Shown piece after piece: positions 3,811 to 13,809 of a stretch of 14,261 nt of DNA (its first letter is position 1; every line of letters starts with the position of its first letter). A program made the position numbers and the translations under genes. Source of the DNA: a virus; UHGV virus genome UHGV-0074784; one strand, written 5' to 3'. Below the pieces are notes generated by a model, which saw nothing but the letters and a program-made list of their open reading frames with translations, made no database searches and was not told where the DNA came from.

Positions 3811-4521
3811 GTGTATGGAGCGCTGAGAAGTATGAATCAACAAGACTTGAATTTTGTCAGAATAGAACTACGTCGTGCGCTGTTTGACTTCTCTGGGGGG
3901 ACAAAAGGGCAGCTTGAGGCTTTCACTGAACACCCACCAGCAGACAAAAATGCCACTCCACGCCGTGGAATTCATCTTGTCGAACTCGAAGGTGATAAGG
4001 GACCACGCTTTGTTAACTCGCTTTCCGCGCCATTGTACGTGCAAGAAACACGTAGCCGCCCCAGGCCAATGCCGCCGATAAAAGATGTAGAATTTGAGTC
4101 CGCGCCGTGGCGTAGGGCAGTGTCCGCGCTTAGTGGATACCAGCAGGCTTGGTTGCGGTACTGTTACGGTTTTGACCTTAACTATACGCACCAGGTGATG
4201 ATGTGTGAATACGTCTGGAAGGCTTATCAGAAATGCTTGGGTAAAAACTCACTTCAGGAGCGCGTAGTAAAAAAACTAATAGGCCTAGTATGGCTTGCAG
4301 GACAGGAAATTGCTGCAACCCGAAACAATGAAACCTATAAAGACTACGCTGGTGCGGCGCTGGCCCGTATGGTTAGCGTTGACCGTTCGACATGGTTGCG
4401 CGTCTATTCAGGCCACTGGGCTGGGTTAAAGGCCGCTTTTACCCAGCTTGATGAGTCTGCGCTGGCCATGGCTCTTGAATACTATGAGGATGAAGAAGCT
4501 CTCAAAGTGGGAGAAATATGA
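3811..4521 (+). CDS. Putative late-gene antitermination protein Q (non-lambda Q family); true start may be ATG 3832
   Basis: Sits immediately upstream of an intergenic region with an intrinsic terminator and the lysis cassette, and downstream of the DUF968 gene (same order as ydfU-quuQ). Assignment is mainly positional; no clear zinc-finger motif as in lambda Q. Confidence 0.5.
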   Translation: MYGALRSMNQQDLNFVRIELRRALFDFSGGTKGQLEAFTEHPPADKNATPRRGIHLVELEGDKGPRFVNSLSAPLYVQETRSRPRPMPPIKDVEFESAPWRRAVSALSGYQQAWLRYCYGFDLNYTHQVMMCEYVWKAYQKCLGKNSLQERVVKKLIGLVWLAGQEIAATRNNETYKDYAGAALARMVSVDRSTWLRVYSGHWAGLKAAFTQLDESALAMALEYYEDEEALKVGEI

Positions 4522-4613
4522 CGTAAATTTCACTATCTCCTTCAAACGCGCTTGCAAAATACAACAAAATAAGCCATATTGGAAGCATGTTTGATATGTT
4601 GCCAAAGTTTTAT
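4522..4613 (+). promoter_or_regulatory. Putative late promoter / Q-utilisation (qut) region
   Basis: Positional inference only. TTGCAA at 4553-4558 is -35-like, but no clean -10 hexamer at 17 +/- 1 bp could be found by eye. Confidence 0.25.
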
Positions 4614-4640
4614 AAACCCGCCGACGAGCGGGTTTTTTGA
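4614..4640 (+). terminator. Rho-independent terminator (tR'-like) downstream of Q
   Basis: AAACCCGC-CGACGA-GCGGG followed by TTTTTT: 5-bp GC stem (4617-4621 / 4628-4632), 6-nt loop, T6 run at 4633-4638. Confidence 0.8.
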
Positions 4641-4714
4641 TATGCGACATAACCTATAACATTTTTTATAAAATAAAATATAATTGCTTTACCATTATCC
4701 TGTGAGTTGAGCAA

Positions 4715-5500
4715 ATGTATATATTTGAATTGACCAAACCTGGCAACTGGCTTGAAAGTGAAGACAAAGAGTGGTCTTGGAAAATAGAACGGCTTTTGGA
4801 CCATCTTGAATTTGCATTTTATGAGGCTAATGTTGCATTAAATTTATTTATGCAGCAGCAAAACAATCAAATAGAACAACAAGGGGTTTCGCAATTGCAA
4901 TGGGAAAAAGAAATGCAAGAACGAAGAACCATCGAAACACTAGTTCGTGAGGAGTTAGGTTTATCCCCTTTTGAGAATCCTGAAAACATACAATTTGAGG
5001 TGGACGCGAGGTTTAAACGAGAAAAGTGGAGTTCTGGTGAAATTCCACGTAGCCACAAACATTGTGTGATTTTTATTTATGCAAAATCTTTTCTTTATTC
5101 TCTTGATACTATTGATAAATTTATAAAGGTTATTTCGAATGAACCTTATGCTCCTGAGTCGATAAAAGCCCTACACGATCAGATAGGTAAAGATTTTCCT
5201 GATCTCAGAGGGGTTAGGAATTCAACTCAACACCTCGAAGATAGGGCTCGAGGGCTTGGCGCAGGGAGAGAACCGAAGCCTTTGAATCTCCAGCCTATAA
5301 GTAATACCTTCATAAATGCACCGCAAGGTGCTTTGATATTAAATAATCTGAATGGCACCAAATTCGGGTCAACTATGTCTGATGGTCACTATGGTGAAGT
5401 GGACATTTCACCTGAATCGTTATCAAAAATGCAAAGTATTGTTCAGGGCGTTCTTGACTCGTTTAAGTGGGTTGGTAATCAGCAACACTTACCAAGTTAA
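4715..5500 (+). CDS. Hypothetical AT-rich cargo (moron) protein, 261 aa, with an R-N-x3-H (HEPN-like) motif; candidate toxin or abortive-infection effector
   Basis: Long ORF in a visibly AT-rich island (about 30-43% GC in sampled 60-bp lines versus ~52% in flanking phage genes). VRNSTQHLEDR at about residues 168-178 fits the Rx4-6H HEPN signature with the typical polar residue after R. Flanked by terminators at 4614-4640 and 5523-5549. No signal peptide or TM segment apparent. Confidence 0.6.
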   Translation: MYIFELTKPGNWLESEDKEWSWKIERLLDHLEFAFYEANVALNLFMQQQNNQIEQQGVSQLQWEKEMQERRTIETLVREELGLSPFENPENIQFEVDARFKREKWSSGEIPRSHKHCVIFIYAKSFLYSLDTIDKFIKVISNEPYAPESIKALHDQIGKDFPDLRGVRNSTQHLEDRARGLGAGREPKPLNLQPISNTFINAPQGALILNNLNGTKFGSTMSDGHYGEVDISPESLSKMQSIVQGVLDSFKWVGNQQHLPS

Positions 5501-5522
5501 CTAAACTTAATTATTCATATTA

Positions 5523-5549
5523 AGGCTGCCATATGGCGGCCTTTTTATT
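5523..5549 (+). terminator. Rho-independent terminator downstream of moron A
   Basis: AGGCTGCC-ATAT-GGCGGCCT forms an 8-bp stem with one G-U wobble, followed by TTTTTATT. Confidence 0.7.
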
Positions 5550-5593
5550 CCCTTCACTTTTGAGAGGATTCACAGCAATTAAGAGGGGGCTAA

Positions 5594-5980
5594 ATGTCCG
5601 ATCCGATTTCCGGCACAGGGTTAGCTGCTGGAGTCCTGACAGGCGCTAGTGTTTATGGACTGCTGACCGGAACTGATTACGGTGTTGTATTTGGCGCATT
5701 TGCAGGGGCTGTATTCTACATCGCAACAGCAGCAGATCTGAGTTTATCGCGTCGACTGGCATATTTTATCGTGTCGTATATTGCCGGAATCCTTTGCTCT
5801 GGGTTGGTTGGCTCCAAGCTGGCAAACTTGACCGGATACAGTGATAAACCTCTGGATGCTATTGGTGCCGTAATCGTCTCTGCTTTAGCCGTTAAAATCC
5901 TGACGTTTCTGAATAACCAGGATATCGGTTCGCTGGTGGCGCTTATAACGCGCCGGGGAGGTTCAGGTGGAGCTAAATGA
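5594..5980 (+). CDS. Phage holin (multi-TM small membrane protein)
   Basis: 128 aa, glycine/alanine-rich hydrophobic segments (GLAAGVLTGASVYGLLTG, VVFGAFAGAVFYIATAA, IVSYIAGILCSGLVG), charged C-terminus. RBS AAGAGGGGG upstream. Immediately precedes the endolysin. Confidence 0.7.
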   Translation: MSDPISGTGLAAGVLTGASVYGLLTGTDYGVVFGAFAGAVFYIATAADLSLSRRLAYFIVSYIAGILCSGLVGSKLANLTGYSDKPLDAIGAVIVSALAVKILTFLNNQDIGSLVALITRRGGSGGAK

Positions 5981-6248: not shown

Positions 6249-6862
6249 TGAACCAACAATTATTTCAAAAGGCGGCTGGTATTAGCGCCGGGCTGGCTGC
6301 GCGCTGGTTTCCGCACATTGATGCGGCGATGAAGGAATTCGGCATTACAGCACCAGCGGATCAGGCAATGTTTATCGCTCAGGTAGGCCATGAGTCGATG
6401 GGGTTTAGCGCCGTAGTTGAAAATTTTAACTACACACCATCTGCGCTGGTGGCGTCGTTCGGAAAGAGGATTACACAGCAGCAGGCTGATGCCCTTGGCA
6501 GAACATCCGGACATGCAGCTCGTCAGGATGCTATTGCCAATCTTGTGTATAGCAACCGACTGGGTAACAAAGCACCAGGTGATGGCTGGAAATATCGTGG
6601 TAGAGGATTAATTCAAATCACTGGCCTCCATAATTATCGCATCTGTGGCGCGGCGCTGAAGTTAGATCTGGTGACTTCACCTGAACAACTGGAACAGGAG
6701 CTACAGGCCGCGCGCTCAGCTGCATGGTTCTACACCTCTAAAGGTTGCATGGTCTACGGTACCGATATTAATCGTGTTACGCGCATCATTAACGGCGGTC
6801 TGAACGGTATTGAGGATCGTAAGGTTCGATACAACAAGGCGCGGGCGGCGCTGCTGGTATGA
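6248..6862 (+). CDS. Endolysin, glycoside hydrolase family 19 (chitinase-like lysozyme)
   Basis: 204 aa with motifs typical of GH19 phage endolysins (FIAQVGHESMGF, YRGRGLIQITGLHNY, INGGLNG). TAATG start/stop coupling with the preceding gene. Confidence 0.85.
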   Translation: MNQQLFQKAAGISAGLAARWFPHIDAAMKEFGITAPADQAMFIAQVGHESMGFSAVVENFNYTPSALVASFGKRITQQQADALGRTSGHAARQDAIANLVYSNRLGNKAPGDGWKYRGRGLIQITGLHNYRICGAALKLDLVTSPEQLEQELQAARSAAWFYTSKGCMVYGTDINRVTRIINGGLNGIEDRKVRYNKARAALLV

Positions 6863-7251
6863 AGATGAGTTATTGGGCGCTCATTTTAACGTTTATTGCT
6901 TGTATTGCTGGTGGTCTTGTTTGGTCAGCGAATCACTATCATGGAAAGTTTCTGGAGGAGCAGAAGCGTGCTGACGCTGCGGAACAGCGAGCTGATTCTA
7001 CTGAGGCTATCACCGCGAATGTTCTGCGTACTATGGCAATAACGAACATCATTCAGGAGGCGAATCAATATGCAAAACAGCAGATCGCACTGGAGTCACA
7101 GAGAACCCAGGAAGATATCAAAGTGGCTGTTGCGGATGATGATTGTGCTTCACGTCCTGTGCCTGCTGCCGCTGCTGACCGGTTGCGGAAGTACGCGAAC
7201 AGTTTACGTGAGCATTCCGAAGACTCCACTACCAGTCAGCTTGACTTCTGA
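6859..7251 (+). CDS. i-spanin (Rz-like)
   Basis: 130 aa with N-terminal TM helix (YWALILTFIACIAGGLVW) followed by a charged, coiled-coil-like periplasmic domain. ATGA overlap with the endolysin stop. Contains the start of an out-of-frame lipoprotein ORF. Confidence 0.7.
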   Translation: MKMSYWALILTFIACIAGGLVWSANHYHGKFLEEQKRADAAEQRADSTEAITANVLRTMAITNIIQEANQYAKQQIALESQRTQEDIKVAVADDDCASRPVPAAAADRLRKYANSLREHSEDSTTSQLDF

Positions 7252-7384
7252 TACACCTGTACCGTTTATACCCAACCCACTGACGTATGGTGCAAGTCTT
7301 GATTTGAATGTAAGTTTGTTATCCGCGTTGGCTCAATGTAATAGGGATAAGTCTGATATCAGAATCATTGATAATCAAAATTGA
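7136..7384 (+). CDS. o-spanin (Rz1-like outer-membrane lipoprotein), overlapped architecture
   Basis: +1 frame relative to Rz; MMIVLHVLCLLPLLTGC supplies a signal peptide with lipobox LTGC. Mature part is proline-rich (PKTPLPVSLTSDTPVPFIPNP). Extends 133 bp beyond the Rz stop. Confidence 0.7.
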   Translation: MMIVLHVLCLLPLLTGCGSTRTVYVSIPKTPLPVSLTSDTPVPFIPNPLTYGASLDLNVSLLSALAQCNRDKSDIRIIDNQN

Positions 7385-7465
7385 TGTATATTTTTATCGT
7401 CATGTAGATAACGAACAAGGTATTCCTCTGATACGTTTCGTTGAATACAGGTCATGGGTAGGCAT

Positions 7466-7497
7466 TGCAATATCGCTTCGAAATTATCTGTGATAAT
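7466..7497 (+). promoter_or_regulatory. Possible sigma70 promoter for moron B (extended -10 TGTGATAAT; -35-like TTGCAA at non-optimal spacing)
   Basis: TGnGATAAT at 7489-7497 in the AT-rich intergenic region about 90 bp upstream of the ATG at 7588; TTGCAA at 7466-7471 gives a 20-bp spacer. Sequence-only prediction. Confidence 0.25.
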
Positions 7498-7587
7498 GCT
7501 CTTAATTTTGAATGTATGTATTTGGGAAAAGAGATAAAGTAATAGTCTAATTAATGGAGATATCCACAAAACACAAGAGGGACTATT

Positions 7588-8094
7588 ATGCGACCAGATC
7601 AATTTTTCTATCCAGATACTTTTACCTTTAATTCATCCACCTATTATGGTCAACGTGACTCATCTAAAGGTCGATTGTATATTCTTATTGAAAGTGACTT
7701 ATGTCCATTTAATATCGGCGATATCATTGTGCAAAAAATGGTCGACAGGGAAAGACTATTTGAAGTGCTTGATTACGAGGTACAAATTAGTCTCGAGGCT
7801 GGTTGCCCTGGCTACTCACATTTGGCGGTATTGATAGTGAAGGCATTGGATGTAAAAGAGAAGCCGAAGCAGATTACGACCCATTTGACGTTTAACGGTG
7901 CTATTAATGCTGGTGGTGATTTTCAAGCCGGTAATGACAATTCGATCACAAAGAATATAACCATTCAACAACTACATGATGCTATAGAGCATTGCAATGA
8001 TCCAGAGGTTAAAAGCCTTTGGCAAAAGCTATTGGAAAATCCGACGTTTGCTTCAATTGCTTCAATATTGGCAAAAAGTGCTTTAGGACAGTAA
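7588..8094 (+). CDS. Hypothetical AT-rich cargo (moron) protein, 168 aa, unknown function
   Basis: ORF with good RBS (AAGAGGGA, 7571-7578) in an AT-rich island (~35% GC in a sampled line) between the spanins and the HNH/terminase genes. Followed by an intrinsic terminator. Soluble, no TM segment or signal peptide, no recognisable catalytic motif. Confidence 0.55.
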   Translation: MRPDQFFYPDTFTFNSSTYYGQRDSSKGRLYILIESDLCPFNIGDIIVQKMVDRERLFEVLDYEVQISLEAGCPGYSHLAVLIVKALDVKEKPKQITTHLTFNGAINAGGDFQAGNDNSITKNITIQQLHDAIEHCNDPEVKSLWQKLLENPTFASIASILAKSALGQ

Positions 8095-8103
8095 TTCATC
8101 AAG

Positions 8104-8127
8104 CCCCATTCAATATGGGGTTTTTAT
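8104..8127 (+). terminator. Rho-independent terminator downstream of moron B
   Basis: CCCCAT-TCAAT-ATGGGG: 6-bp stem (8104-8109 / 8115-8120) followed by TTTTTAT. Confidence 0.75.
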
Positions 8128-8151
8128 GCTTATTACAAAGAGTTTTCTTCA

Positions 8152-8627: not shown

Positions 8628-9122
8628 ATGGCTGGAACGGCGGGGCGTTCCGGGCGTCGCCCCAAGCCAACGGCGCGCAAGGCGCTGGCCGGAAACCCCG
8701 GCAAGCGAGCCCTGAATAAAGATGAACCTGTTTTTACGCCCATCAAAGGTGTTGAGCCACCGGAGTGGTTCGCAGAAGAAAATCTCCCTCTCGCCACGAT
8801 CATGTGGCAACTGACAACCAAAGAACTCTGCGGTCAGGGCCTGTTGTGCGTGACTGACCTCGCGGTGCTTGAGCGGTGGTGCGTGGCCTATGAGTTCTGG
8901 CGACGTGCCGTGAAAAATATTGCCATACAGGGCAACACCATCACCGGTGCAATGGGCGGCAGGGTCAAAAATCCGGAGCTGACCGCCAAAAAAGAACAGG
9001 AGTCCGAGATGAGCAGCACGGGGGCAATGCTCGGACTCGACCCCAGCAGCCGCCAGCGTCTGATTGGCCTGGCGGGGCAGAAGAAAGCCACTAACCCGTT
9101 TCTGAAAATCATCGAGTCATGA
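8628..9122 (+). CDS. Terminase small subunit (P27-family type)
   Basis: About 165 aa with a basic N-terminus ([25 protein letters not shown]), typical of P27-family small terminases. RBS AGGAG at 8615-8619. Directly precedes the large terminase with ATGA overlap. Confidence 0.8.
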
Positions 9123-9925
9123 GCCGGAAATCTTACCCCAACGTAAATGCTGCCAATCAGTATGCCCGTGATGTTGTGCGCGGAAAGATTGTGGCCTGCC
9201 AGTTTGTGATTCAGGCCTGCCAGCGCCATCTTGATGACCTGATGGCGGAAAAAAGTAAGTCGTTTCGTTACCGCTTCGACAAGGACCTGGCTGAACGGGC
9301 TGCCAAATTTATTCAGCTGTTGCCGCACACCAAGGGGGAGTGGGCATTCAAGAGGATGCCCATCACGCTGGAGCCGTGGCAGCTCTTTGTGATCTGCTGT
9401 GCGTTTGGCTGGGTCAATAAAGGCTCCCGGCTGCGCCGCTTCCGGGAGGTGTATACCGAAATCCCCCGTAAGAACGGCAAATCGGCAATCTCTGCCGGTG
9501 TTGCCCTGTATTGTTTTGCCTGTGATAACGAGTTTGGCGCGGAAGTGTATTCCGGTGCCACGACAGAGAAACAGGCGTGGGAAGTCTTTCGCCCGGCGCG
9601 ACTGATGTGTAAACGCACACCCATGCTGACGGAAGCGTTCGGGATTGAGGTTAACGCCTCAAACATGAACCGTCCGGAGGATGGCGCGCGGTTTGAACCG
9701 CTGATCGGTAACCCCGGTGATGGTTCATCACCCCACTGTGCCGTGGTGGATGAATATCACGAGCACGCCACCGATGCGCTTTATACCACGATGCTTACCG
9801 GGATGGGCGCGCGACGTCAGCCACTGATGTGGGCCATCACCACCGCCGGGTACAACATTGAGGGGCCGTGCTACGACAAGCGGCGGGAAGTTATCGAGAT
9901 GCTCAACGGTTCGGTATGTTTCTGA
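9119..9925 (+). pseudogene. Terminase large subunit, N-terminal ATPase domain only (C-terminal nuclease domain missing)
   Basis: Walker A-like EIPRKNGKS and Walker B-like AVVDEYHE are present, but the ORF stops after 268 aa (...EMLNGSVCF). Intact large terminases of this type are roughly twice as long. Downstream sequence switches to tail-gene coding. Confidence 0.75.
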
Positions 9926-9929
9926 TGCG

Positions 9930-10715
9930 ATGAAAGTGGTGGATTCTGCCGTATCGGATGCCGCCAGGCTGTTGCAGGGGGATATCTCGGTACTTCTGCC
10001 GCCGCCATCGTCAGGCAAAAATTTCGTTGAGCAGGTGCAGAAAATGTGGCGTACCGGGAAACGCCTTTATGGTAACGCCAGCGACCTGGTCACCATGATC
10101 AAAACGCTTTCCGGTGTCAGCCTCGGCAGCGATCTGCAACCGCGCGGCGTCTGGAAAACGGACAGTAAAACCACCGCCACGGCGACGCAGCAGCGTAACG
10201 TGGTTGCCAGCACCCTTCGTACGACCGCAATCAGCGAAGCGGCGTATGCCGTCACCCGATTGCCTGCGCCAACAACTTCCGCGGTGATGCAGAATTCCGC
10301 AGTGGGGCAGGCAACAACACCCGCGCAGAGCACTGGCTGGCCTTCCATCACGCATCCGGCACTGAACAATGCACCGGCGGTGAAAAACACGGTTGACCTG
10401 CCGACGTGGGAAGAACTGACTGACATTCGCGACACACTGAATACGGCAATTGATAAGGAGTTGTCCCGTACAACCAGCGATGCGCTGTTTCTGGCGCTGC
10501 GCCGGGTGAAAGCAGATCTGAATGCGGATATCAACACGCGCCTTGAACAGTCTGCACGGATCATTCAGCGCACACCGGATGAGGTTTTACCCGCGCTGGT
10601 GCTGGCGGCGACCTGGTTTGATAACGCGGCGCGTGACGCGGACATTATCCGGCGTAATGCCATTACGCATCCCGGCTTTGTGCCGGTGATCCCTCTGAAG
10701 GTGCCAGTGCAATGA
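9930..10715 (+). pseudogene. Mu gp43/N-like tail (DNA circularisation) protein, probable C-terminal fragment left by a deletion
   Basis: ORF in a different frame from the terminase. Its stop overlaps the start of the gp44-like gene, as in intact Mu-like tail modules. The 5' part of the ORF-track frame (9858-9929) overlaps terminase coding and is probably not native. Assignment is by position and composition; weak. Confidence 0.4.
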
Positions 10716-11791
10716 ACGACAATGTCACGCTACGGGTAAATGGCCGGGAGTGGAATGGCTGGACATCGGTGCGCATCGGTGCCGGTATTGAACGGCTGGC
10801 GCGGGATTTCAGTGTGGAGATCACCCGCCAGTGGCCGGGAGATGAGGGTATCACCACGCTTCAGCCGCGCATTAAAAACGGTTCAAAAGTGGAGGTGCTG
10901 ATTGGTGATGAGCTGGTGATCACCGGCTGGGTGGAGGCGACGCCCGTTCGTTACGATGCCCGTTCGGTCAGCACCGGTATTGCCGGACGCAGTCTGACCG
11001 CTGACCTGATTGACTGTGCAGCCGAACCGACACAGTTTAATGGACGATCGCTGGTACAGATTGCGCAGGCGCTTGCTGCGCCTTTCGGCATTGAGGTGGT
11101 GAACAACGGTGCGCCGTCGGGTGTTATTCCTGATGTCCAGCCTGATCACGGTGAAACGGTGATTGAGGTAATCAACAAAATACTCGGTCAGCAGCAGGCA
11201 CTGGCTTACGACGACCCGCACGGCAGGCTGGTGATTGGCGGTATTGGCTCAACGCGGGCACATACTGCGCTGGTACTCGGGGAAAACATCCTTTCCTGCG
11301 ATACGGAGAAGAGTATCCGGGAGCGGTTTTCTGTTTACCAGGTGGCGGGGCAGCGTGCCGGAAACGACGATGATTTCGGTGAGGCCACCACCACCGCGCT
11401 GCGGGCCCGCACAGAGGACGCATTTATTGCCCGTTACCGTCCGATGTATATCAGGCAGACAGGGCAGGCTACGGGGGCAGGCTGTATTGCCCGTGCGGAC
11501 TTTGAAGCCCGACAACGGGCGGCGCGGACGGATGAAACCACCTATGTGGTGCAGGGCTGGCGACAGGGTAACGGTACGCTGTGGCAGCCCAACCAGCGGG
11601 TGATTGTCTTTGATCCGGTCTGTGGTTTCGACAATACCGAACTGCTTGTTTCGGAAGTCACGTTTACTCAGGACCAGAACGGCACCCTGACGGAAATCCG
11701 TGTCGGCCCACCTGATGCTTATCTGCCTGAACCCGAAGCCCCCAGCGCGCGGAAAAAGAAAAAAGCCAGAGTACAGGAGGACCCGTTCTGA
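10712..11791 (+). CDS. Mu gp44 (P)-like baseplate hub protein
   Basis: 359 aa; size, gene order (before gpV-like, gp46-like and J-like genes) and ATGA coupling match Mu-like baseplate modules. Lysine-rich C-terminus (SARKKKKARVQEDPF). Confidence 0.7.
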   Translation: MNDNVTLRVNGREWNGWTSVRIGAGIERLARDFSVEITRQWPGDEGITTLQPRIKNGSKVEVLIGDELVITGWVEATPVRYDARSVSTGIAGRSLTADLIDCAAEPTQFNGRSLVQIAQALAAPFGIEVVNNGAPSGVIPDVQPDHGETVIEVINKILGQQQALAYDDPHGRLVIGGIGSTRAHTALVLGENILSCDTEKSIRERFSVYQVAGQRAGNDDDFGEATTTALRARTEDAFIARYRPMYIRQTGQATGAGCIARADFEARQRAARTDETTYVVQGWRQGNGTLWQPNQRVIVFDPVCGFDNTELLVSEVTFTQDQNGTLTEIRVGPPDAYLPEPEAPSARKKKKARVQEDPF

Positions 11792-12339
11792 TGAGGACGA
11801 TTGAAGCCATGCAGCGACAACTCCTCGGCCTGATTGGGCGGGCCGTGGTGAAAAGCATCAGTGCCGCCACGAAATGTCAGACCGTGGATGTGTCCCTGAT
11901 TGCCGGTGAACCCAAAGCCGGGGTTGAACATCTTGAACCCTACGGTTTTACCTCAAGGGCAAACAGCGGTGCGGAAGCGGTGGTGTTGTTTCCGGATGGC
12001 GACCGTTCTCATGCGGTGGTTGTTACGGTGTCGGACCGGCGCTACCGCCTGAAAGGGCTGCAGACGGGTGAGGTGGCTGTCTATGACGATCAGGGGCAGT
12101 CCGTGACGCTGACCCGGGAGGGGATCGTGGTGGACGGTGCAGGTAAAACGATCACGTTTCGCAATTCACCTAAAGCGCGTTTTGAAATGGACCTGGAAGT
12201 GACCGGACAGGTGAAAGACCTGTGCGACTCCGGCGGCACCACCATGTCAGCGATGCGGCTTGCCTATAACGGCCATCGTCACAGAGAGAACGGTCAGGGC
12301 AGTAACACCGACAAACCGGATAAAGCGATGGAGGCATGA
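11791..12339 (+). CDS. Baseplate assembly protein V / Mu gp45-like baseplate spike
   Basis: 182 aa; N-terminal region (GLIGRAVVKSI...VDVSLIAGEPKAGVEHLEPYGFTSRANSGAEAVVLFPDGDRSHAVVV) is typical of gpV-like OB-fold spike proteins. Gene order supports the call. Confidence 0.75.
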   Translation: MRTIEAMQRQLLGLIGRAVVKSISAATKCQTVDVSLIAGEPKAGVEHLEPYGFTSRANSGAEAVVLFPDGDRSHAVVVTVSDRRYRLKGLQTGEVAVYDDQGQSVTLTREGIVVDGAGKTITFRNSPKARFEMDLEVTGQVKDLCDSGGTTMSAMRLAYNGHRHRENGQGSNTDKPDKAMEA

Positions 12340-12764
12340 TGGAACTGTGGCTGACGGTGAACGGTAAACGCACCTGCGCCAGCGCACCGCTGGATCCGCT
12401 GACCCGCGCCGTGGTGATTTCCCTGTTCACCTGGCGGCGGGCGGAGCCTGATGATAATGCCGACGTCCCGATGGGATGGTGGGGGGATACCTGGCCTGCG
12501 GTACAGAATGACCGTTACGGCTCCCGACTGTGGCTGCTTCAGCGCAGCAAACTGACCAATCAGCTGGTGCAGACGGTAAGGGGGTATATCCGCGAATGCC
12601 TGCAATGGATGACTGATGACGGCGTGGTGTCCCGTATTGATCTGGATATCCGCCGCACCGGGATTAATGAACTGGGTAACAGTATCACTCTCTGGCGTCG
12701 TGACGGACCGGTAATGATTTCTTTTGATGATCTGTGGAGTGCGATAACGCATGGCGGACAGTGA
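12336..12764 (+). CDS. Mu gp46-like (GP46 family, gp25/W-like) baseplate protein
   Basis: 142 aa small protein between the gpV-like and baseplate-J-like genes, with overlapping start/stop codons. Confidence 0.7.
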   Translation: MMELWLTVNGKRTCASAPLDPLTRAVVISLFTWRRAEPDDNADVPMGWWGDTWPAVQNDRYGSRLWLLQRSKLTNQLVQTVRGYIRECLQWMTDDGVVSRIDLDIRRTGINELGNSITLWRRDGPVMISFDDLWSAITHGGQ

Positions 12765-13809
12765 ATTTCAGCGCCCGACGCTGGCAGAAAATATCAGTAT
12801 GCTCCGTAACGATTTATTCGCCAGGCTGGACGTCAGCGACACGCTCCGGCGCATGGATGAAGACGTGCGGGCAAAGGTGTATGCGGCGGCGCTGCATACG
12901 GTTTACGGTTACATCGATTATCTGGCAATGAACATGCTGCCTGACCTGTGCGATGAGTCCTGGCTGGCGCGACATGCTGCGATGAAACGGTGTCCGCGCA
13001 AGGGGGCCACGGCTGCCAGCGGGTATATGCGCTGGGAAGGTGTCAGCGATGGCCTGAAGGTGACTGCCGGGAGTGTTATTCAGCGCGATGACCTGGTTCA
13101 GTACACGGCAACTGCCGATGCAACCAGCTCCGGTGGTGTCCTGCGCGTGCCGATCGCCTGCTCAAGTGCAGGTGCGGTCGGTAACGCTGACGACGGTACG
13201 GCATTAATCCTGGTCACGCCGGTGAATGGTCTGCCGTCTTCCGGTGTGGCTGACACCCTGACAGGCGGATTTGATACTGAAGAGCTGGAAACGTGGCGCG
13301 CCCGCGTCATTGAGCGGTATTACTGGACGCCTCAGGGCGGGGCTGACGGGGACTATGTCGTCTGGGCTAAAGAAGTGCCCGGCATTACCCGCGCATGGAC
13401 ATACCGTCACTGGATGGGAACGGGAACTGTCGGTGTGATGATTGCCAGCAGTGACCTGATTAATCCCATTCCGGAAGAATCAACGGAAACGGCGGCAAGA
13501 CAACATATTGAGCCACTGGCCCCGGTGGCAGGCTCTGATTTGTATGTGTTCAGGCCGGTGGCACATACGGTGGATTTTCATATCCGTGTGACGCCGGACA
13601 CACCGGAAATACGGGCTGCCATCACCGCGGAGTTGCGTTCGTTCCTGCTGCGTGATGGTTATCCGCAGGGAGAACTGAAGGTATCGCGTATCAGTGAGGC
13701 GATTTCCGGTGCGAACGGGGAATACAGCCATCAGTTGCTTGCACCGGCAGACAATATCTCCATTGCAAAAAATGAACTGGCGGTTCTGGGGACGATTTCA
13801 TGGACGTGA
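12751..13809 (+). CDS. Baseplate J-like protein (Mu gp47-like)
   Basis: 352 aa; size, composition and position upstream of the DUF2313 tail protein fit the baseplate J family. Confidence 0.75.

Follow-up and report, generated by a model that had tools for sequence, protein, structure and literature searches.

What does a foreign, AT-rich gene do between the late antiterminator and the holin of a lambdoid prophage? In Stx phages this slot carries Shiga toxin. We asked the question of a single gene in UHGV virus genome UHGV-0074784, a stretch of 14,261 nucleotides that is referred to below, at its full length, as the window. An initial annotation, made from the letters alone, had noted an open reading frame (ORF) at 4715-5500 on the plus strand, the peptide VRNSTQHLEDR in its product and, within that peptide, the signature of HEPN ribonucleases (RNases). 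The ORF is present at these coordinates, opens with ATG and encodes 261 amino acids, including the peptide; the numbers given for the two key residues, R169 and H174, were off by one, the correct ones being R168 (codon 5216-5218) and H173 (codon 5231-5233). From the conserved motif, the predicted fold and the genomic contexts of the family we propose, with moderate confidence, that the protein is a solo HEPN-like RNase of a new family acting as an abortive-infection defence.

A family of hypothetical proteins that keeps an R[N/D]xxxH motif

We compared the 261-aa protein with profile libraries and found a single match, phrog_5322, whose function is not known (E=1e-124). Neither Pfam nor NCBIfam gave a match, and nor did PADLOC-DB v2.0.0 scanned at E<=1, a library that predates post-2023 systems (HepS, Esos and others); the earlier remark that the protein belongs to no named family thus holds. 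A word-indexed search found 416 homologues, and an exhaustive profile search brought the family to 968 representative clusters (50% identity). Nearly all members are full-length and 250-280 aa long, and every named one is called 'hypothetical'. A spurious ORF was rejected on the strength of these homologues and clusters, all of about 260 aa. When a single genome was scanned for each species, 48 loci came up, spread over Gamma-, Beta- and Deltaproteobacteria, the Acidobacteriota and a lone actinobacterium. Of 5,426 complete E. coli genomes, 25 carry the 1,028-bp segment that holds the gene at >=99% identity, in every case on the chromosome and with the product annotated as 'hypothetical protein' (WP_000275196.1). 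The family is present in prophages and in PHROGs, and nucleotide and tblastn searches of 50,697 deposited phage records gave no match to it.

Six residues (R168, N169, H173, E175, R177 and R179) are invariant in all 30 members at >=51% identity. Conservation of the R and the H among homologues had been named in the initial annotation as a check on its proposal, and it extends to distant members: in 60 proteins at 29-52% identity, R168 is kept in 58 and H173 in 59, and the residue at position 169 is always N (43 members) or D (17 members). A second motif is also retained in these 60 proteins, with D131 in 54 and K or R at position 135 in 55. Since R[N/D]xxxH is present in 58 of the 60 members, down to about 30% identity, RNxxxH in the 261-aa protein is not a chance match. 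Among the exceptions, P0128 has V in place of R168, and P0259 has S in place of R168 and R in place of H173; both retain the remainder of the protein and, to judge by their sequences, may be inactivated or repurposed copies.

The predicted fold resembles a HEPN bundle with inserts

AlphaFold2, run with the family alignment, gave a model (pLDDT 89, pTM 0.83) with an all-alpha core and a small beta unit. Its helices span residues 18-54, 59-81, 89-106, 112-141, 148-160, 164-178 and 233-249 (H1 to H7). Motif residues 168-173 sit in helix 164-178 (H6, the motif helix), which is followed by a Gly-rich loop modelled at low confidence (179-200); this loop and the beta insert precede helix 233-249.

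The packing of the helices was derived by mean-field direct-coupling analysis (DCA) of 261 family sequences (Neff 189). The top couplings run antiparallel between H1 and H4 (E37-C117, E37-K124, L31-I133, I24-I140) and between H4 and the motif helix (Y128-Q172, Y128-T171, K135-R165, D134-R165, F136-L174), and the latter set places D131 opposite R168 and N169. H5 lies against H7 (F161-S235, Q156-G245), which also contacts H4 (I133-V243) and H1 (F35-M239). H2 and H3 form a separate hairpin, and the motif helix touches the beta unit. The core is thus predicted to be an up-down four-helix bundle with RNxxxH near the end of its third helix, as in HEPN proteins; this third-helix placement comes from a predicted structure and inferred contacts, not from a solved structure. 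Core helices 1 to 4 would correspond to residues 18-54, 112-141, 148-178 (kinked) and 233-249, and the helical hairpin 59-106 and the beta unit at ~205-232, joined by an N-terminal strand, would be lineage-specific inserts.

Is the protein a HEPN RNase?

HEPN domains have been defined (Anantharaman et al. 2013, PMC3710099) as four-helix up-down bundles made of two alpha-hairpins, often with inserts, in which an Rx4-6H motif stands at the end of helix 3. The residue next to the R of the motif is polar and in most cases N, D or H, and a second acidic residue, typically in the form Ex3[KR], lies near the motif on helix 2. The present family has the Rx4-6H motif with its polar residue (R168-N169-x3-H173), has the helix-2 acidic motif as a Dx3[KR] variant (D131, K/R135), and carries the RNxxxH motif at the end of core helix 3 in both the AlphaFold2 model and the DCA assignment.

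Several results, however, weigh against a HEPN RNase. Profile similarity to an established HEPN family was not found: a Pfam scan of the query and 60 members at E<=10 gave scattered chance matches and no HEPN, profile searches of PDB sequences gave chance matches only, again with no HEPN, and when the family profile was aligned by hhalign with single sequences of AbiV and Abi_2 that neighbour family members, the probabilities stayed below 5%. A model restricted to residues 86-261 did not retrieve any HEPN structure; this search was uninformative, because the construct was without core helix 1 on the coevolution map. A literature search for WP_000275196.1 found no paper that mentions the protein. 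One PDB profile match, to choline kinase, was rejected as chance, its E-value rising from 0.005 with alignment A1 to 0.26 with the more diverse alignment A4. The initial annotation was therefore right in part: its HEPN signature is kept across the family but has no profile link to a described HEPN family, and the structural check it proposed gave a confident helical model with a motif helix but, in Foldseek searches of the model against PDB, nothing below E=0.1. The case for HEPN membership therefore rests on the motif, the predicted topology and a modest structural match, and not on statistically supported homology.

A rival reading is a helical-bundle protein in which R-N-x3-H-x-E-D-R-x-R would serve some other role, for instance in binding a ligand, a nucleic acid or a protein or in a different kind of catalysis; the gene could then be a moron that benefits the lysogen in a different way, for example as a superinfection exclusion protein, a fitness factor or a regulator. 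We consider this rather unlikely, given that position 169 is exactly N or D, that an acidic/basic pair stands on the adjacent helix, that the motif falls near the end of the third core helix as the HEPN definition predicts, and that the neighbours of the family are defence and toxin genes (see below).

The gene is cargo within a predicted late operon

The solo HEPN-like RNase proposed here would be encoded by a gene whose surroundings in the window are as follows.

3811-4521, plus strand: Q-type late-gene antiterminator (PF06323 Phage_antiter_Q, E=3.2e-37; phrog_304, E=1.7e-71)
4522-4613, plus strand: conserved leader 3' of Q, kept along with Q in the E. coli Nissle 1917 prophage
4614-4641, plus strand: intrinsic terminator of the Q module (tR'-like), hairpin 4614-4635 and T-run
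~4639-5521, plus strand: foreign AT-rich cargo cassette (moron), with homology breaks on both sides
4656-4684, plus strand: sigma-70 promoter-like site ATAACA-17-TATAAT, 10/12 match
4715-5500, plus strand: ORF for the HEPN-like protein (phrog_5322; RefSeq WP_000275196.1)
5105-5119, plus strand: codons D131-x3-K135 in core helix 2, a candidate counterpart of the HEPN Ex3[KR] acidic motif
5216-5233, plus strand: codons R168-N169-S-T-Q-H173, candidate Rx4H RNase active-site motif
5522-5549, plus strand: strong intrinsic terminator, hairpin 5522-5543 and T-run, ~20-22 nt past the stop codon
5594-6862, plus strand: lysis module with two holin-family genes and a GH19 endolysin (PF16931, PF05449, PF00182; phrog_198, phrog_217)

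The position claimed for the ORF, between Q and the holin, was borne out by its flanks, a PF06323 antiterminator (labelled 'bacteriophage antitermination protein Q' by RefSeq on an identical copy of 3811-4521) and a PF16931 holin at 5594-5980, the latter followed by the PF05449 holin and then the endolysin. The foreign composition was likewise confirmed: GC is 0.370 in the cassette (4641-5521) versus 0.547 in the rest of the window, and 0.387 in the ORF itself (GC at third codon positions, 0.321); in a 300-bp profile it runs at 0.34-0.41 across ~4500-5550 versus 0.47-0.55 in the adjoining genes. We mapped the boundaries of the cassette by searching the region from Q through the holins against related prophages. 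Matches on the Q side end at ~4638, just past the first terminator, and matches on the holin side begin at 5522 or 5548; both flanks are common to many more prophages than the cassette itself. These homology breaks, together with the lack of a shared neighbour family described below, support the view that the ORF is single-gene cargo at the Q-to-holin slot.

Both terminator hairpins of the initial annotation were found, within 1-2 bases of where it had put them. The upstream one has a stem of 8 bp (5 GC pairs) followed by a T-run, with a minimum free energy (MFE) of -12.3 kcal/mol (z=-3.1), and the downstream one a stem of 9 bp (6 GC pairs) followed by a T-run, with an MFE of -17.5 kcal/mol (z=-5.0); in each case none of 200 shuffles was equally stable. 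The first, however, belongs to the Q module and not to the cassette. The E. coli Nissle 1917 prophage has other cargo, yet its Q gene and leader are ~92% identical and its terminator is conserved, with homology stopping at ~4638; strain 2023CK-01509 has a similar stem behind a different antiterminator. Because the Nissle alignment runs through the Q gene, the leader 3' of it and the terminator at 4614-4641 and then diverges completely, the three form one conserved module. The idea that two terminators insulate the cassette thus had to be dropped: the upstream terminator is shared by prophages with other cargo, and the ORF, which starts 74 bp after it, is therefore predicted to lie inside the Q-extended late transcript. 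By analogy with the organization of lambdoid phages, the late promoter and the Q-utilization region would fall within the leader (4522-4613), and Q-modified polymerase would read through 4614-4641 into the ORF and the lysis genes.

The cassette shows the foreign GC, the variable cargo between conserved Q and holin flanks and the terminator of its own that mark a moron. As for a promoter of its own, the site at 4656-4684 is just a 10/12 consensus match and no better than chance, with four promoter-like matches observed in the region versus 3.6 expected from shuffles; it is only suggestive of an autonomous promoter.

Repeated capture at the slot and other genomic contexts

Homologues in Enterobacteria, at ~58-60% identity, occupy the same Q-to-holin slot, and this placement recurs in at least six independent prophage lineages. 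Upstream of them stand four unrelated types of antiterminator (PF06323, PF03589, PF06530 and DUF1133), and downstream three different holin families. The homologues at L009, L011 and L013 each have their own downstream terminator, at the same relative position and of different sequence. Since unrelated antiterminators and holins flank the gene and each copy brings its own terminator, it has been captured at this slot repeatedly.

Other cargo was also seen in the slot. In E. coli Nissle 1917 (L007 4644-7325) it holds a small hypothetical gene, an SDH-family Clp-fold serine protease and a DNA methyltransferase, and elsewhere, with the same holin module, single hypothetical genes encoding 198 aa (L008 2887-3483), 85 aa (L018 2710-2967) and 189 aa (L019 2100-2669). 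In Klebsiella, an ORF of 51-86 aa lies on the opposite strand between Q and the homologue (L011 5653-5895, L012 5634-5894, L014 5739-5894); it has no counterpart in the window and was not conserved across taxa in the neighbour clustering.

Outside the slot, the contexts vary. The Vibrio parahaemolyticus homologue is a true integron cassette, bracketed by attC-type repeats and near a HEPN_AbiV cassette. The locus (L003 1-9300) is a chromosomal integron array with 14 attC-type repeats every 480-930 bp, and its cassettes encode HEPN_AbiV, a glyoxalase, an acetyltransferase, a PNPOx-like protein and proteins of 208, 185, 219, 153 and 175 aa that have no Pfam match; a group II intron reverse transcriptase and an SMC/AAA ATPase are in the neighbourhood. 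On small Rep3/Mob plasmids of Acinetobacter the homologue comes directly after an Abi_2 gene and adjoins RelE/Xre. It is accompanied by an AAA_21 ATPase, Xre-RES and a type I restriction-modification system in an island of Desulfuromonadales, stands as a moron within the prophage tail module in Andreprevotia, and is found alone between metabolic genes in Chromobacterium. The gene is AT-rich relative to the host in Enterobacteria and Chromobacterium and equals the host GC in Vibrio and Acinetobacter.

We clustered the ORFs within 2.5 kb of the gene at 47 loci, and no neighbour family was found in more than five of them; at those five the distance and orientation differ, and synteny links three of them, all from Acinetobacter. 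On this basis we rejected a partner or antitoxin gene. The integron cassettes, the plasmids with Abi_2 and RelE and the restriction-modification island fit the defence or toxin role first suggested for the gene. A mobile defence or toxin gene would be expected in such places, which argue against a phage-specific structural or regulatory role.

Placement within a Q-antiterminated late transcript in at least six independent prophage lineages, with weak evidence for an own promoter, is what would be expected if a HEPN-like RNase served the phage itself during lytic growth, by host shut-off, counter-defence or late exclusion of co-infecting phages. We regard this as quite improbable, as the family also occurs in integron cassettes, on small plasmids, in a chromosomal defence island and between metabolic genes, as the gene is retained at >=99% identity in the 25 E. 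coli genomes, seemingly defective prophages with a truncated terminase included, and as each copy is followed by a terminator, as in classical morons. That the protein is the toxin of an addiction (toxin-antitoxin-like) module, whose unrecognised antitoxin might be a small RNA or a very short ORF, is very improbable: the family does adjoin RelE/Xre and RES/Xre and sits in integron arrays, where toxin-antitoxin systems are common, and HEPN toxins are frequent in such systems (PMC3710099), but no neighbouring ORF is conserved across the 47 loci, just 74 bp upstream and ~20 bp downstream separate the gene from the terminators, and Rfam and tRNA scans of the window found none, although no search was aimed at a conserved upstream RNA.

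Comparison with known HEPN systems

We compared the family with HEPN proteins of similar setting. Among solo defences a precedent is HepS of the Gifsy-1 prophage, a tetrameric HEPN anticodon nuclease triggered by the tail-tip protein J (PMC13043305). Both HepS and, to judge by sequence, the present HEPN-like protein are single HEPN-type products of lambdoid prophage accessory genes, with Rx4H and no partner, and HepS offers a model for a solo HEPN protein that does both the sensing and the killing. In contrast to the present protein, HepS has its motif at R100/H105, its homologues are shorter than 250 aa and its tRNA targets are known; no sequence or structure search (PDB library to April 2026) retrieved it.

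Tha, an HEPN RNase defence of a Staphylococcus aureus prophage, is activated by a structural protein of the incoming phage (PMC11087260). It too is prophage-borne, and its role is the counterpart of the one proposed here by analogy. Unlike the present gene, tha lies in the cI (lysogeny) operon, is off upon induction and is paired with the inhibitor Ith (PMC11087260), whereas the gene studied here is in the late operon and has no partner across 47 loci. The late-operon position is a further difficulty for a defence role: without a foreign trigger, the prophage would be harmed by the toxin that it encodes.

The lactococcal-type abortive-infection HEPN proteins AbiV (PF18728), AbiD/F (Abi_2, PF07751) and AbiU2 are, like the present family, encoded by single genes on mobile elements, and AbiV and Abi_2 genes adjoin family members in Vibrio and Acinetobacter. 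There is no likeness to AbiV or Abi_2 in Pfam or hhalign comparisons, and AbiV typically lacks the canonical H (PMC3710099), which the present family keeps. In HEPN-MNT toxin-antitoxin systems (HepT/MntA; PDB 7ae2, 5yep, 8xdj) the HEPN toxin has ~130-140 aa and invariably comes with a nucleotidyltransferase antitoxin, whereas neither an MNT nor any other partner was found beside the present gene and its homologues at the loci examined.

Integron cassettes offer two more comparisons. Vpc_cass2 (PDB 3jrt) is an integron cassette HEPN family in Table 1 of PMC3710099; it has 166 aa, versus 261 aa here, and the extra helical hairpin and beta insert are on the side of the present family. No likeness to 3jrt was detectable in profile searches of PDB sequences at E<=10. 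As a precedent, anti-phage integron cassettes of V. cholerae include the validated, HEPN-like-only 'Esos' (10.1101/2024.07.02.601686).

A model for the function of the protein

In the solo abortive-infection defence that we favour, we infer the HEPN homology, the RNase chemistry, the trigger, the defence role and the expression pattern. R168, N169 and H173 would form, with D131 and K135, a metal-independent RNase site, probably completed by oligomerization. The gene would be an autonomous one-gene cassette without a partner, a moron lodged between the terminator of the late antiterminator and the holin. Its expression in the lysogen would be low, through the weak promoter of its own or through read-through, and strong once Q is made. 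The protein would stay inactive until it senses a cue of infection, plausibly via the insert domains, and once activated would cleave tRNA or mRNA and so halt phage growth, in the manner of HepS, Tha and AbiV-type proteins. Alternatively, within the same reading, it may be a conditionally toxic RNase.

As the gene, unlike tha, lies in the late operon, self-immunity would have to come from the specificity of the trigger, as with HepS. A more specific version can be drawn from this, though we hold it doubtful: the family might be a new branch of HEPN-like RNases specialised as cargo of the Q-to-holin slot, the beta unit and the helical hairpin might form a built-in sensor of the RNase, the late operon might couple its dose to late transcription, and the protein might fire only on a trigger from a foreign phage or once a heterologous Q activates the resident late operon, thereby sensing trans-activation by superinfecting lambdoid phages, with self-immunity from trigger specificity and not from an antitoxin.

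Other features of the prophage

A second AT-rich island lies at 7385-8151 (GC 0.37). Its ORF, 7588-8094 (plus strand, 168 aa), stands between the Rz/Rz1 lysis genes and the genes for an HNH endonuclease and the small terminase. The only match of the ORF was phrog_5789 (function not known), with none in Pfam, NCBIfam or PADLOC, and its product shares 98.8% identity with a hypothetical protein from Escherichia phage vB_EcoM-689R6. Tai defence genes have been reported upstream of the packaging module in lambdoid phages (PMC11364771); the ORF is at the reported Tai site, a likeness of position only.

Between the endolysin and this island, a 130-aa Rz-like ORF at 6859-7251, with no Pfam match, is overlapped out of frame by 7070-7384, which encodes 104 aa with a lipobox-like LLTGC. 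This is the arrangement expected of an Rz/Rz1 spanin pair, to which the two ORFs putatively belong; RefSeq names for their equivalents are 'lysis protein' and, in related prophages, 'Rz1-like LysC'.

The large terminase ORF (9119-9925, 268 aa) ends after the ATPase domain (PF03354 only) and has no nuclease domain. Downstream of it (9858-13809) come a 285-aa ORF without a Pfam match and then Mu-like gp44/P-like, gp45, gp46 and Baseplate_J genes; portal, capsid and most tail genes are absent from the prophage in the window. The same terminase is likewise truncated in strain KSC64, where an integrase-bearing element follows it instead. The prophage in the window is probably deleted or mosaic and defective, yet it retains both morons.

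Implications

Solo HEPN defences of prophages are already known; the present family would be a new and unannotated one of that kind, with an unusual architecture of predicted inserts and a marked preference for the Q-to-holin slot. If our proposal is correct, the solo-HEPN abortive-infection proteins would gain a widespread family of 968 clusters (50% identity). Because Pfam, NCBIfam and PADLOC all miss the family, it is invisible to censuses of defence systems. The slot between the Q terminator and the holin would then be a hotspot for defence genes in prophages of E. coli, Klebsiella and Enterobacter, and one would have to ask how a prophage can tolerate a potentially suicidal RNase in the operon that it transcribes most strongly.

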